The notes under the pieces: generated by a model
The model's input: only the letters and a program-made list of their open reading frames with translations
Database searches by the model: none
What the model was told of the DNA's origin: nothing
Translations under genes and position numbers: made by a program
Source: Sulfurimonas sp.
GTDB lineage: Bacteria > Campylobacterota > Campylobacteria > Campylobacterales > Sulfurimonadaceae
Length of the DNA stretch: 64,000 nt
NCBI GenBank assembly: GCA_011391635.1
Contig: JAABQD010000010.1
Span: 3,059 to 67,058, forward strand
Direction: 5' to 3'
Shown: piece after piece, positions 5,049-61,381 of the stretch
Position numbering within the stretch: position 1 is the first letter of the stretch
Layout of the letters: the number at the start of each line of letters is the position of its first letter

Positions 5049-5089
5049 TTCCACATGCCAAAAATCTTGGCATGTGGAACTATTTTTTA
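5049..5089 (+). terminator. Inverted pair of the 13-mer forming a hairpin with a U-tract; likely dnaK terminator
   Basis: TTCCACATGCCAA-aaatc-TTGGCATGTGGAA-ctatttttt between convergent genes. Confidence 0.8.
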
Positions 5090-6199: not shown

Positions 6200-6230
6200 T
6201 TGGCATGTGGAAATAAATTCCACATGCCAA
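6200..6230. terminator. Inverted pair of the 13-mer between convergent genes
   Basis: TTGGCATGTGGAA-ataaa-TTCCACATGCCAA. Confidence 0.7.
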
Positions 6231-11413: not shown

Positions 11414-11446
11414 TTCCACATGCCAAAGTGTGATTGGCATGTGGAA
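11414..11446. terminator. Inverted pair of the 13-mer downstream of the 11458-11934 gene
   Basis: TTCCACATGCCAA-agtgtga-TTGGCATGTGGAA; no U-tract. Confidence 0.6.
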
Positions 11447-22988: not shown

Positions 22989-23020
22989 ATTTCCACATGC
23001 CAATTATGGCATGTGGAAAT
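22989..23020. terminator. Inverted pair of the 13-mer between convergent motB and groEL
   Basis: 14-bp perfect stem ATTTCCACATGCCA-atta-TGGCATGTGGAAAT. Confidence 0.7.
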
Positions 23021-23022
23021 GA

Positions 23023-24651
23023 TTACATCATTCCTGGCATTCCGCCCATTCCACCGCCCATATCTGAAGCAGGTTTCTCTTCCGGAATTTCAAAAATAGC
23101 AGCTTCCGTTGTCAAAAGTAAACTTGAAACAGAAGTAGCATTGAGAAGTGCAACTCTTGCTACTTTAAGTGGGTCAATAATTCCCGCTTCAAACATATCA
23201 ACATATTCGCCCGTAGCTGCATTAAAGCCAATATTTTCATTTGTAGCACTCTCCACTGCATTGACTACAACACCTGTGTCATACCCAGCATTTTGAGCGA
23301 TTTGTTTCATCGGAGCTTTGACCGCACGAAGAATAATTTCGCAACCGATTTTTTGATCACCCGATAAATCAAGGTTTACTTTCGCAGCAGCACGGACTAA
23401 AGCCGCTCCACCACCGATAATAATTCCCTCTTCTACCGCTGCTTTCGTAGCTGATAAAGCGTCATCCACACGGTCTTTTCTCTCTTTCATTTCTGTTTCA
23501 GTTGCAGCACCTACTTTGATAACCGCTACACCGCCACTAAGTTTTGCTAGTCGTTCTTGAAGTTTCTCTTTATCATACTCAGAAGAGGTCGCATCGATTT
23601 GCACTTTGATTTCAGCGATTCTTGCTTTTACAGCTGCTTCATCTCCTGCACCATTGACGATAACCGTCGTATCTTTATCGAGAATAATACGAGACGCTTG
23701 TCCTAACATCTGAAGATTTGCACCCTCTAGTGTGTGTCCTGTCTCTTCTGAAACAACTGTACCACGCGTTAAAATTGCTATATCTTGAAGCATTGCTTTT
23801 CTTCTATCACCAAAACCTGGGGCTTTGACTGCAGAAATATTTAAAACGCCTCGAAGTTTATTTACAACCAAAGTTGAGAGTGCTTCTCCCTCTACATCTT
23901 CAGCAATGATGAGAAGTGGACGAGAAGTTTTCTGAACTTGCTCCAATACTGGAAGTAAATCTTTAAGAGATGAAATTTTACTGTCCACAAGTAAAATCCA
24001 AGGATTTTCTATCTCAGCTATCATTTTTTCAGGATTTGTGATGAAATATGGGCTTAAATAGCCACGGTCAAATTGCATTCCTTCAACAACTGTTAGCTCA
24101 TCCGAAATACCTTTTGCTTCCTCAACCGTAATCACACCGTCCTGTCCAACTTTGTCCATAGCTTCAGCAATCATATCGCCAATAGCCGTGTCTGAGTTTG
24201 CAGAGATAGTTGCAACTTGTGCTATATCTTTTTTGCCGTTGACTGCTTTAGAAGCTGTTTTTAGGTTTGCTAAAATCGCCTCACACGCTTTATCCATACC
24301 GCGTTTTACTTCAACTGGATTTGCTCCAGCAGTGATGTTTCTAAGACCTTCAGAAAAAATCGCATTTGCTAAAACCGTAGCTGTTGTCGTGCCATCTCCT
24401 GCTTCATCCGCAGTGTTTGAAGCAACCTGTTTTACAAGTTGTGCACCCATGTCTTCAAGTTTGTCTTTAAGTTCAATCTCTCTTGCAACTGTCACACCAT
24501 CTTTTGTGATTATTGGTGAGCCGTAACTTTTTTGAATCAAAACATTACGACCGCGAGGTCCCATTGTCACTTTTACTGCATCTGTTAGTTTTGCAACTCC
24601 ACGAGCTAATGCGTTTCTTGCATTATCTGAAAATATTATCTCTTTTGCCAT
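23023..24651 (-). CDS. groL: Chaperonin GroEL
   Basis: [31 protein letters not shown] tail. Confidence 0.99.
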
Positions 24652-24657
24652 GATTAA

Positions 24658-24918
24658 TTATCCTATTATTCCAAAAATATCATCAGTTTCTAAAACTAAA
24701 AATTTATCCGTACCAAGTGAAACTTCATTGCCTGAATATTTTCCAAACAACACAACATTTCCACATGCCAAATCAGTAACCTCTTTACTCACTGCAATTA
24801 CTTCACCGCGAGATGGCTTCTCTTGTGCATTATCAGGAATTATAATCCCCGAACTAGTAGTATTTGCTTCTTCTAGTCTTTTAACTAGAACTCTTTTTCC
24901 TAACGGCTGAAAGTTCAT
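24658..24918 (-). CDS. groS: Co-chaperonin GroES
   Basis: [23 protein letters not shown]. Confidence 0.96.
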
Positions 24919-40549: not shown

Positions 40550-41167
40550 ATGCATTTTCTAAGAACCGAGATACCTGATGTCATCATCATCGAGCCAAAG
40601 GTACATGGAGATGCAAGAGGCTATTTCGTCGAAACTTTTAGAGCAGATAAACTTGAAGCTTTTTTGGGTTATAAAATCAACTTTTGCCAAGACAACGAAT
40701 CTAAGTCAAGTAGAGGAGTTTTACGAGGTCTGCATTACCAACTTCCTCCTGATGCACAAACGAAACTTGTTCGTGTCATTCAAGGCAGAGTTTTAGATGT
40801 TGCAGTAGATATTCGTAAAAGGAGTCCAACTTTTGGAAAACATGTAGCAGTTGAACTGAGTGGTGAGAACAAACGACAACTTTTTGTCCCAAGAGGTTTT
40901 GCTCATGGCTTTGTCGTGCTTGAGGATGATACGGTTTTTGCCTATAAAGTGGATAACTATTATAGTCCTGAAAATGACAGAGGAATAGCTTTTGATGATG
41001 TGGCTTTAAACATTGATTGGCAAGTTCCACATGCCGAGTTAAACTTATCTGCAAAAGACAAGGTTCAGCCAAAACTAGAGCAAGTGCTTTCACAAAGTGA
41101 AAAGTTTCCTAGAAAATTGAATGAGACAAATGACTTATTTGAGTATGGAATGGATTACTATGCTTAA
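40550..41167 (+). CDS. rfbC: dTDP-4-dehydrorhamnose 3,5-epimerase
   Basis: QDNESKS, LRGLHYQ, GFAHGF. Confidence 0.96.
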   Translation: MHFLRTEIPDVIIIEPKVHGDARGYFVETFRADKLEAFLGYKINFCQDNESKSSRGVLRGLHYQLPPDAQTKLVRVIQGRVLDVAVDIRKRSPTFGKHVAVELSGENKRQLFVPRGFAHGFVVLEDDTVFAYKVDNYYSPENDRGIAFDDVALNIDWQVPHAELNLSAKDKVQPKLEQVLSQSEKFPRKLNETNDLFEYGMDYYA

Positions 41168-42038
41168 TGTTTTAGTGACTGGAAGTAATGGGCAACTAGG
41201 TTCTGAGATAAAAGAGTTGGCATGTGGAAATGAAACTTTTGAAAATAAAACTTTTTTCTTCACAGACAGAGCTACTCTCGATATCTCAAATCCAAAGACA
41301 ATAAATGAATTTATAAATGCAAACAGTATCGACACAATTATCAATTGTGCAGCTTACACAGCGGTGGACAAAGCAGAGTCCGATGCAGAAATGGCTGATA
41401 CAATAAATCATCTAGCACTCAAATATTTAGCTGAAATTTCAAAAGAAAAAAATATAAAACTTATTCATATCTCGACTGATTATGTTTTTGACGGCAAAAA
41501 CCACATGCCATACACCGAAAATGACCAAACCAATCCACAATCAGTGTATGGACGAACGAAACTTGATGGCGAAAAAGCCATGCAAGAGGTGAATCCACAC
41601 AACTCACTCATCATCCGAACTTCATGGGTTTACTCCTCGTATGGAGCAAACTTTGTAAAAACAATGCTTCGTTTAGGCAAAGAAAAAGAGTCTTTAGGCG
41701 TAATTTACGACCAAGTCGGAACACCTACTTATGCGAGAGATTTGGCACAAGCTATTTTGGATATTTTGCCAAAAATCAAAAATGAAAGAGTAGAAATCTA
41801 TAACTATTCAAACGAAGGTGTTCTCAGCTGGTATGATTTTGCAAAAGAGATTATGCGTATGAGTAAATCCACATGCCAGATTAATCCAATTGAGACAAAA
41901 GAGTATCCGACTCCTGCCAAAAGACCTAATTACAGTTTGCTCAACAAAGCTAAAATAAAACGAGAATACAACCTAAATATACCTTATTGGAAAGATAGCT
42001 TAGATGATTGTTTAAAGAAAATGGGAGAGAGAAGATAA
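41160..42038 (+). CDS. rfbD: dTDP-4-dehydrorhamnose reductase (start likely 41160)
   Basis: GSNGQLG, NCAAYTAVD, HISTDYVF, YGRTK. Confidence 0.95.
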   Translation: MLNVLVTGSNGQLGSEIKELACGNETFENKTFFFTDRATLDISNPKTINEFINANSIDTIINCAAYTAVDKAESDAEMADTINHLALKYLAEISKEKNIKLIHISTDYVFDGKNHMPYTENDQTNPQSVYGRTKLDGEKAMQEVNPHNSLIIRTSWVYSSYGANFVKTMLRLGKEKESLGVIYDQVGTPTYARDLAQAILDILPKIKNERVEIYNYSNEGVLSWYDFAKEIMRMSKSTCQINPIETKEYPTPAKRPNYSLLNKAKIKREYNLNIPYWKDSLDDCLKKMGERR

Positions 42039-48182: not shown

Positions 48183-49493
48183 TTGATGCTATATTTTTTA
48201 TTTTTATTGGTTTTGATTTTTTCTGCTTATCTCCTCTTTTTGTTCAAAAGAGTAAATAAATACAGATACGATACAGGGCATGACTATATCTACAACCTCG
48301 AAAAAAATCTCATAGCTCAAACCAAAATAGAAAAAAATAGTATTGTTTTGCATAAAAGTTATAAAAATTATGATTCACTTTTTCTCAAAATCAGACTCTC
48401 ACTCAACCCTCTCTCCTATTTTTGTAAACCATACATAGAGATAGAAAATGTAAAACACTATTTTGAATATGGAGCAAGTGGTGTACGATATCTTAATATC
48501 TCTCACATCAAAAGCCATATAGTACGCTTAGAGATGCATTATGCTTCTCTTGGCAGTGATGAAGCAACTGTTTATGGCTACAAAAATGATATCAATCTTA
48601 CCAACAAAATACTTATTCTCGCTCCACATGCCGATGATGCCGAGATTGCAGCTTTTGGACTCTACAAAAAAGCAAGTGATGTGACCATTGCCGTCACAAC
48701 GGCTGGAGAGTATGGAGCATGTAACTATTGTGATATTTATGATAATGACAAGACCAAACAATCCCTCAAAAAAGCAGAACTGAGAATATTTGATGCTTTA
48801 TGTGTCCCGCTTCTTGGAAATGTTACGATTGAAAACTCTTTTACTTTAGGTTATTTTGATTTAAGCCTCAAATGGATGCATGACCACAAGGGAGAGAGTG
48901 CTTCTTCCCTTATCCAAGGTATCGATGATATTAATAAATTCAGAAAAGTATCTCATGCAAAAGTGCAACTGCCACATCTTGCCAAACCTGTTTATAGTTC
49001 TTTTTTAGAAGATTTAATAAGCATTATAACTCAGACCAAACCAGCCATTATTCTCACGCCACACCCAACAATTGACAGACACTCTGACCATAAATACACA
49101 ACACTCGCTCTTATAGATGCACTCAAAGCAACAAACCATTCATGCAAACTTCTGCTCTATACAAACCACTTAAAGCTCAGCGAAACATACCCGATAGGCG
49201 AAATCAACTCCTCTATCACACTGCCACCTAATAAAGAGGATTTTTACTTTGATTCTATCTACTCATCAGAGCTTGATTACAATCTTCAAGTGGATAAGTT
49301 TTTTGCCCTAGAAGCGATGCATGATTTGAGAGATTCACTCATCTTTATCTCCATCAAACAGTCGATAAAACACCTTAACAAAATGATAAAAAGAAAGTTT
49401 TTTGGAAAAGATAAAAGCTACTACAAAAGAGCTACAAGAGCGAATGAACTCTTTTTTGTCGTAGAGAGTGAGAATATAGATAAATTACTGTAG
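48183..49493 (+). CDS. PIG-L/LmbE-family de-N-acetylase with N-terminal membrane anchor
   Basis: LAPHADDAE, TTAGE, HPTIDRHSDH. Confidence 0.75.
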   Translation: MMLYFLFLLVLIFSAYLLFLFKRVNKYRYDTGHDYIYNLEKNLIAQTKIEKNSIVLHKSYKNYDSLFLKIRLSLNPLSYFCKPYIEIENVKHYFEYGASGVRYLNISHIKSHIVRLEMHYASLGSDEATVYGYKNDINLTNKILILAPHADDAEIAAFGLYKKASDVTIAVTTAGEYGACNYCDIYDNDKTKQSLKKAELRIFDALCVPLLGNVTIENSFTLGYFDLSLKWMHDHKGESASSLIQGIDDINKFRKVSHAKVQLPHLAKPVYSSFLEDLISIITQTKPAIILTPHPTIDRHSDHKYTTLALIDALKATNHSCKLLLYTNHLKLSETYPIGEINSSITLPPNKEDFYFDSIYSSELDYNLQVDKFFALEAMHDLRDSLIFISIKQSIKHLNKMIKRKFFGKDKSYYKRATRANELFFVVESENIDKLL

Positions 49494-61343: not shown

Positions 61344-61369
61344 TTGGCATGTGGAACTTCCACATGCCA
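61344..61369. terminator. Inverted pair of the 13-mer between convergent waaF and hldE
   Basis: TTGGCATGTGGAA-c-TTCCACATGCCA. Confidence 0.65.
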
Positions 61370-61381
61370 GATAAAGAATAC

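Follow-up and report, generated by a model that had tools for sequence, protein, structure and literature searches.

The residues L-A-C-G-N in the GroES protein of this Sulfurimonas genome are written by a perfect copy of a short DNA word, and we determined that the in-gene copies of this word are tolerated by-products of a word that is maintained genome-wide at the level of DNA. As judged from the genomes compared here, the word is created and kept at the DNA level within a single subclade of Sulfurimonas, the GroES segment representing one of roughly 1,400 copies. With little more than even confidence, we interpret it as a self-DNA tag that serves natural transformation and is probably recognised once an orphan Mod-like enzyme has methylated it.

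The window, that is, the whole stretch of DNA that was analysed (64 kb), belongs to a Sulfurimonas assembly (G000) of 84 contigs, 2.35 Mb and 35.8% GC, the genus assignment being borne out by its GroEL relatives. The groES site comprises two features:

24658-24918, minus strand: groES, 86 aa; the word covers a variable dipeptide ahead of a conserved Gly-(Asp/Asn).
24759-24771, plus strand: perfect 13-mer TTCCACATGCCAA, in groES; the other strand encodes L50-A51-C52-G53-(N54).

The minus-strand codons across 24759-24771 are TTG GCA TGT GGA A, corresponding to L50, A51, C52, G53 and the first base of N54, which bears out the reading of a perfect copy as L-A-C-G-N made in the initial annotation. 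TTCCACATGCCAA is non-palindromic; its internal CATG alone is its own reverse complement. Genes were called as longest ORFs, and such a caller prefers to groES a shadow ORF of exactly 86 aa on the opposite strand (24650-24910, plus strand), in which the word is read as PHA and the translation of which still matches 'homologues' in relatives; this shadow ORF was replaced by groES by hand before peptides were tallied.

The 9-base core, CCACATGCC, is present in 52 copies in the window, compared with 0.21 expected from dinucleotide-preserving shuffles, and 26 of these cores are part of perfect 13-mers. Their span, the two other in-gene copies considered individually, and the inverted pairs are as follows:

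2046-61370, both strands (33 on plus, 19 on minus): span covering all 52 cores, 36 in coding sequences and 16 intergenic.
41217-41229, minus strand: word copy in the RmlD/RfbD gene (41121-42038, plus strand), reading E-L-A-C-G-N; the motif-free congener G017 has ELIQHS.
48622-48634, plus strand: word copy CTCCACATGCCGA in a PIG-L-domain gene (48183-49493, plus strand), reading A-P-H-A-D-D where the PIG-L domain begins.
22991-23018, unstranded: inverted word pair, 4 nt past the groEL stop codon at the convergent motB/groEL junction.
5049-5079, unstranded: inverted word pair (hairpin) in an intergenic spacer.
6200-6230, unstranded: inverted word pair (hairpin) in an intergenic spacer.
11414-11446, unstranded: inverted word pair (hairpin) in an intergenic spacer.
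61344-61370, unstranded: inverted word pair (hairpin) in an intergenic spacer.

The peptides encoded by the 36 coding copies (PHA 11, ACG 8, (W/G)HV 7, GMW 6, HMP 2 and STCQ 2) were tallied identically in the initial annotation, which was also correct in reading ELACGNETF in the RmlD/RfbD protein (translation of 41121-42038) and in proposing that one copy coincides with a genuine protein motif, as APHADD opens the PIG-L domain encoded within 48183-49493. The inverted pair beyond groEL (22991-23018) forms a hairpin with a perfect stem of 14 bp (-22.9 kcal/mol, z = -5.2) and without a U-tract, and was not called by a simple terminator scan.

Across the genome, the 10-mer TCCACATGCC is found 1,298 times, compared with 2.8 copies expected under an order-3 Markov model (2.35 Mb), and the core CCACATGCC 1,393 times, compared with 7.5 expected, the cores being divided 697 to 696 between the two strands. 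An order-3 Markov k-mer screen identified TCCACATGCC as the sole word of such excess in this genome; statistics based on maximal-order Markov models were dropped in favour of the order-3 model, as they are uninformative when sub-words of the motif are enriched too. The consensus is a-n-T-T-CCACATGCC-A-A, with a strict core of CACATGC, and conservation is gone within ~15 bp; the word is therefore not a longer repeat. Any inner one-off variant is ~100 times rarer than the perfect word: variants at positions 0, 1 and 9 are found at 10-47 per Mb, those at inner positions at 0-7 per Mb.

While genes make up 91% of the genome, they contain 72.5% of the cores, the remaining 27.5% being located in the 8.6% that is non-coding. 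Word density is highest in convergent spacers (5.1 per kb), followed by tandem spacers (2.3), divergent spacers (0.86) and coding sequences (0.47). Close inverted pairs (n=96) form hairpins with an MFE of ~-21 kcal/mol at a median distance of 11 bp past the stop codon; 76 of the 96 lie in convergent or tandem spacers, and the 3'-end hairpins have no U-tract and go unrecognised by a simple terminator scan. The in-gene copies occupy all six frames (PHA 356, ACG 231, xHV 163, HMP 103, GMW 82, STC 75).

The longest regions devoid of the word are the rpoBC operon, the ribosomal-protein operons and a low-GC island. This island (C1:95105-105303, outside the window; 30.8% GC, zero word copies) has no homologues in the sampled congeners and carries a C5 cytosine methyltransferase gene. 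Furthermore, 25 contigs shorter than 9 kb (80.6 kb in total; e.g., C44 and C49) contain no word copies, compared with ~48 expected, and 16% of the genes on contigs of this size match G017, compared with 39% on large contigs; these small word-free contigs are probably foreign, accessory or mis-binned DNA. Two tandem arrays of the word were also observed outside the window: one at C18:43137-43420 (16 x 18 bp, TTCCACATGCCAAGATAT), where it produces a spurious ORF of SWHVEI repeats, and one at C8:~300-455 (9 x 18 bp, TTCCACATGCCGTGATGT). We know of no comparable DUS or USS array.

Comparisons were made with three congeners: G209, which is motif-rich; G019, which belongs to the same clade and has eight-fold fewer copies; and G017, which is motif-free. 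Because synteny around groESL is poor, with 6-14 of 56 window genes recovered from five motif-free genomes, 1.28 Mb of G017 was used for comparison instead. At orthologous sites, G209 retains 80% of the G000 cores but only 22% of control 9-mers (flank identity 82%), whereas in the decayed G019 the respective values are 16.7% and 12.7% (flank identity 79%) and in G017 they are 0.3% and 7.7% (flank identity 75%). These contrasts show that the word is actively maintained in some lineages and neutral in others. At the groES site, every word-carrying species keeps TTGGCATGTGGA(A), while nearby synonymous sites differ. Orthologous sites differ by point substitutions toward the word rather than by insertions, and when set against outsider lineages the word arose through several substitutions at each site. 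In G019 there is an excess of transition one-off variants, the signature of decay; a dialect shift in this genome (CCGCATGCC) was considered and rejected, transition decay being the better explanation.

The proteome bears the mark of the word. Relative to the motif-free G017 proteome, PHA is enriched 8.6-fold, ACG 5.9-fold, WHV 8.5-fold, GMW 48-fold, HMP 5.9-fold and STCQ 30-fold, and LACG is found 142 times in G000 and not once in G017, while permuted control peptides are at ~1x; the six peptides suggested by the initial annotation for a proteome-wide check are thus enriched 6-48x. Over the whole proteome, histidine rises from 1.91% in G017 to 2.16% in G000 (+13% relative) and methionine from 2.48% to 2.72% (+10% relative).

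When the word-bearing codons were aligned with their G017 orthologs, the latter were found to encode other peptides, and the full peptide is shared at no more than 20 of 447 sites. Across these 447 sites, G000 and G017 agree at 45.6% of the residues under the word, at 69% of those nearby and at 72.5% of those elsewhere in the protein. Between two motif-free species, however, these same columns are likewise less conserved (56.9% identical versus 73% elsewhere; 59 site comparisons), and so the word sits preferentially on variable positions. Among columns conserved between the two motif-free species, 37% are changed in G000 under the word compared with 14% elsewhere, and the replacements have a mean BLOSUM62 score of -0.55 under the word compared with +0.33 elsewhere (e.g., GQF>GMW, THIE>WHVE and QYVD>WHVE). 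Hence the proposal that the word overrides conserved residues holds only in part: some such residues are overridden (37% versus 14%), but most copies occupy variable positions (57% versus 73%), that in GroES included. In motif-free Sulfurimonas the corresponding GroES segment is (V/L/I)-(K/A/N/E/T)-(C/S/N/K/V/E)-G-(D/N), and solved GroES homologues vary at both changed positions as well and keep the Gly. Thus, while the exact overlap of the segment with the word is correct, the two changed residues are hypervariable in the genus, with 12 different dipeptides, and the conserved Gly is retained. The suggestion that copies are forced into protein termini does not hold, as 26 sites fall within the first 10 residues and 24 within the last 10, compared with 30.6 expected for each.

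Constraint on the gene as a whole matters as well: genes at least 90% identical to G017 have 0.07 copies per kb, those 60-80% identical ~0.85. In total, roughly 1,000 protein positions, mostly tolerant ones, are altered by the word. In our reading, the word becomes fixed wherever any of its six translations (PHA, ACG, xHV, HMP, GMW, STC) is tolerated by the protein, chiefly in moderately conserved genes and at their variable residues, and is excluded from the most constrained genes and from recently acquired DNA. That selection acts instead on the protein, favouring peptides such as PHA and ACG, or that the word is a side effect of codon usage, can be considered refuted: although some copies match true motifs (PHADD in the PIG-L domain), one DNA word gives six unrelated peptides from either strand, 27.5% of the copies are non-coding, synonymous positions are fixed, and permuted peptides are not enriched. 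The initial annotation's preference for drive at the DNA level over protein-level selection is therefore upheld by the use of all six frames, by the fixed synonymous positions, by the 80% versus 22% retention in G209, by the different peptides of motif-free orthologs and by the more radical replacements under the word.

Among ~143 sampled Sulfurimonas genomes, eight contain 725-1,307 copies of TCCACATGCC and ~12 contain 36-371, while the rest (~120) have 0-15; in 22 other genera of the family, the 10-mer is present at background only. In a tree built from a single locus (groESL), all carriers except two low-count genomes group in a single clade with 17 members, in which rich and poor lineages are intermixed: the sisters G273 and G187 have 758 and 71 copies, respectively, and G000, G205 and G209 have ~1,300 each, while their sister group has 141-183. 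A single origin followed by several decays is the simplest account of this tree.

Other words were detected in other members of the genus. A palindrome, TTACATGTAA, is present in 130-425 copies in G016, G259, G332, G276 and others, and ACATCCCAAG in 393 copies in G242 and 329 in G175; each is mutually exclusive with the word of G000. TTACATGTAA has ACATG in common with the latter. G017 has no comparable hyperabundant word of its own in the 1.28 Mb sampled. A 12- to 13-mer, CGTCATTCTGAAC, present there in ~25 copies (L132-L210, 1.28 Mb), is a dispersed repeat far below the scale of uptake sequences.

A screen of the DNA methyltransferases of G000 yielded a candidate partner for the word outside the window (C45:745-2007), a protein of 420 aa with Pfam domain PF01555, the closest solved relatives of which are type III Mod subunits. 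Together with relatives at 50-68% identity it makes up a separate short subfamily, identity falling to 45% with the 640-aa Mods, and an adjacent Res gene is absent both from G000 and from G209, where the orthologue is at L240:8142-9368. The gene itself holds a word copy (LLLACGLL). Seven of the eight motif-rich genomes (G000 counted) have an orthologue, which is intact in G209, G265, G252, G203 and G273 and split by a contig break in G171; among the 12 intermediate genomes it is intact in G296 and a fragment in G294, and none of 14 motif-free genomes has one. The hypergeometric p for this association, calculated by hand, is ~5e-5, a value that ignores kinship and reflects ~3 independent contrasts. 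In nine of nine further public contigs encoding the subfamily, including a 2.43-Mb Sulfurimonas chromosome, CACATGCC is the most enriched 8-mer. On two metagenome contigs that encode the methyltransferase (L252 and L253), GCACATGCC and CACATGCCA outnumber CCACATGCC; given this variation in the flank, CACATGCC(A) looks invariant, and the 5' flank looks like a dialect that differs between lineages.

The methyltransferase lies in a conserved neighbourhood, with the order M18 peptidase, HisKA, two small ORFs, methyltransferase, (MCP), ResB. The syntenic site of G017 lacks the gene, 115 bp separating the second small ORF from ResB, and in the decayed G019 both small ORFs are kept and unrelated short ORFs replace the methyltransferase. 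The small ORFs (~106 aa, and ~94 aa and DUF2249-like) usually precede the methyltransferase, and their stops and starts abut or overlap. Two exceptions to the association were observed: no orthologue is detectable in the motif-rich G205, which could mean that the gene falls into a gap of the assembly or was lost very recently, and G139 has 330 word copies without the gene. The 396-aa methyltransferase of G205 was rejected as an orthologue, being a different, type II enzyme with a putative nuclease adjoining. Of the other methyltransferases of G000, the MmeI-like (C51) and C5 (C15) enzymes have no association with the word, and the C5 enzyme at C1:97 kb sits in the motif-free island. In view of the G205 exception, and as the association ignores kinship, we regard the link between methyltransferase and word, drawn from gene content, as a strong lead; the enzyme may recognise the word.

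G000 encodes competence genes, including ComEC, DprA, two T2SS/T4P-like clusters and prepilins; since these are common to motif-free relatives, they do not explain the specificity of the word. The T2SS/T4P-like cluster at C15:76671-83475 is ~78% identical to its G017 counterpart, and the cluster at C1:264733-274894 (GspC/D/E/F/K-like proteins and pseudopilins) is patchy across the genus. The latter was rejected as an uptake machine specific to the clade, given that many motif-free genomes have its GspK-like gene and some carriers do not. The PF16732 (ComP_DUS) profile had no match in 26 genomes, with the control genomes silent as well, and no clear ComEA was found in G000, where a search with HHH_3 gave only a 702-aa Tex-like ORF. 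Loss of ComEC was likewise rejected as the reason for decay: most decayed lineages, like the motif-free ones, have an intact ComEC, and competence loss thus does not account for the decay.

Under the interpretation as a self-DNA tag, tagged DNA would be preferentially taken up or recombined, and the tag would spread by molecular drive, like the DUS of Neisseriaceae and the USS of Pasteurellaceae, with uptake or recombination presumably the biased step. The tag would probably be recognised when methylated, with an orphan adenine methyltransferase of this clade (type III Mod-like) tracking the word, and where the methyltransferase gene is lost, the word would decay by mutation. We hold a more specific version tentatively: that the word is, or contains, the site of the methyltransferase and that the methylated word is the self-tag required by the competence machine. 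A swap of one gene would then switch the language of a lineage, with TTACATGTAA, ACATCCCAAG and AAACGCAG each having its own enzyme.

The pattern described here resembles in many respects the DUS of Neisseriaceae (GCCGTCTGAA and its dialects) and the USS of Pasteurellaceae, which are likewise non-palindromic, ~10-13 bp long and present at ~0.6 copies per kb on both strands. As with these, the Sulfurimonas word is over-represented in non-coding DNA, forms inverted pairs at the 3' ends of genes, occupies all frames within genes, prefers poorly conserved genes and residues, inflates the matching tripeptides, is lacking in foreign DNA and is restricted to a clade. It differs from them in its host, a member of the Campylobacterota, in which a ComP-type receptor was not found (the control being silent), and in tracking an orphan methyltransferase, absent from DUS/USS systems. 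Moreover, the words of Sulfurimonas sister lineages are unrelated, whereas dialects of the Neisseria DUS shift by 1-2 nt, which indicates faster turnover. USS and DUS are known to coevolve with proteomes, with a tripeptide inflation of ~2x (Findlay & Redfield 2009, PMC2817400), much smaller than the 6-48x in Sulfurimonas; coevolution with proteomes is also documented in Helsem et al. 2025 (bioRxiv 10.1101/2024.10.24.684340), and a 2025 survey presents uptake sequences as characteristic of Neisseriaceae and Pasteurellaceae.

Uptake in Campylobacter jejuni, of the same phylum, needs methylated DNA, namely RAATTY methylation (Golz & Stingl 2021, PMC8468864). A candidate orphan adenine methyltransferase that marks self DNA for a T2SS/T4P-like uptake machine would be a further similarity between the two. 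The Sulfurimonas word differs from RAATTY in being long and ~450-fold enriched. RAATTY, a short and common site, is not known to be driven to hyperabundance. Our literature search returned no paper on such a word in Sulfurimonas or Campylobacterota and none tying Sulfurimonas to uptake sequences, and a search for the word sequence itself returned unrelated primers only.

The main rival, though in our judgement rather unlikely, is that the word is of the HIP type and has no role in uptake: the orphan methyltransferase would mark a site within the word, and a methylation-dependent bias in mismatch repair or gene conversion acting within the cell (Elhai's HIP1 model) would create and maintain the longer word, leaving the in-gene copies as by-products. 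In cyanobacteria, HIP words go together with orphan methyltransferases, and departures from the word are found chiefly at its ends (Elhai 2015, PMC4390886), and HIP1 (GCGATCGC) is, like the Sulfurimonas word, hyperabundant, present in genes too and tied to a particular orphan methyltransferase. In both cases, lineages losing the methyltransferase show decay or a replacement word, and one-base deviations are tolerated at the word ends only (PMC4390886). The co-occurrence of the Sulfurimonas methyltransferase with a high word count, its absence where the word decays, and the quite different words of sister lineages, one of them a palindrome, as with 'alternate HIPs', are also consistent with a HIP-type origin. 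However, the Sulfurimonas word is non-palindromic, its enzyme is a predicted short m6A-type relative of type III Mods rather than Dam-like or m5C, no repair nuclease partner was identified, and 3'-end hairpin pairs are not a feature of HIP1. Inverted pairs past stop codons and absence from the low-GC island form the classical DUS/USS pattern, although any time-dependent drive combined with tolerance would give the same pairs and the same island pattern. Methylated HIP1 has, moreover, been reported to boost transformation (Kamoku & Nielsen 2024, bioRxiv 10.1101/2024.09.10.611283; Rodriguez-Cruz et al. 2026, PMC13756078), and this reinterpretation of HIP1 as a transformation signal blurs the line between the HIP-type alternative and the self-DNA tag that we prefer.

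It is improbable that the word serves the chromosome as a strand-oriented or structural signal and is selected for that function, in the manner of Chi, KOPS/AIMS or a nucleoid-protein site, even though it is short, very abundant and conserved. Word orientation has no relation to GC skew (404/369 and 293/327), whereas 66-68% of genes are co-oriented, which removes readings of the Chi/KOPS type, and the word is lineage-specific and decaying in close relatives. The ~450-fold excess is also far beyond what is known for Chi or KOPS. Still less credible is a miniature mobile element or terminator module, spread by transposition or by selection for termination: the 96 inverted pairs do form strong hairpins past stop codons and there are two tandem arrays of 18-bp units, but conservation stops ~15 bp from the core, 72.5% of the copies are single and located in genes in all six frames, and orthologous sites show substitutions toward the word, not insertions.

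Self-DNA-favouring tags have, to our knowledge, been experimentally established in two families only, the Neisseriaceae and the Pasteurellaceae; cyanobacterial HIP1 has recently been proposed as a third case (10.1101/2024.09.10.611283; PMC13756078). A sulfur-oxidising environmental genus with a maintained word, relatives in which it decays, other words in other lineages and a candidate gene would allow direct tests of how such a tag arises, is kept up and dies out. The word also provides a measure of how far DNA drive reaches into proteins, with tripeptides containing His, Cys, Met and Trp raised 6-48-fold and radical replacements introduced, while the most constrained genes are spared. In practical terms, such words mislead ORF callers and motif finders, and word density can be used as a check on MAG binning that flags foreign or mis-binned contigs. 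If the reading of the word as a methylated self-tag is true, DUS/USS, HIP1 and the methyl-discrimination of C. jejuni would be one phenomenon, and its birth, maintenance, decay and replacement would be found side by side in one genus; replacement of an enzyme would cause the old word to decay and a new one to be written into ~1,000 protein positions.
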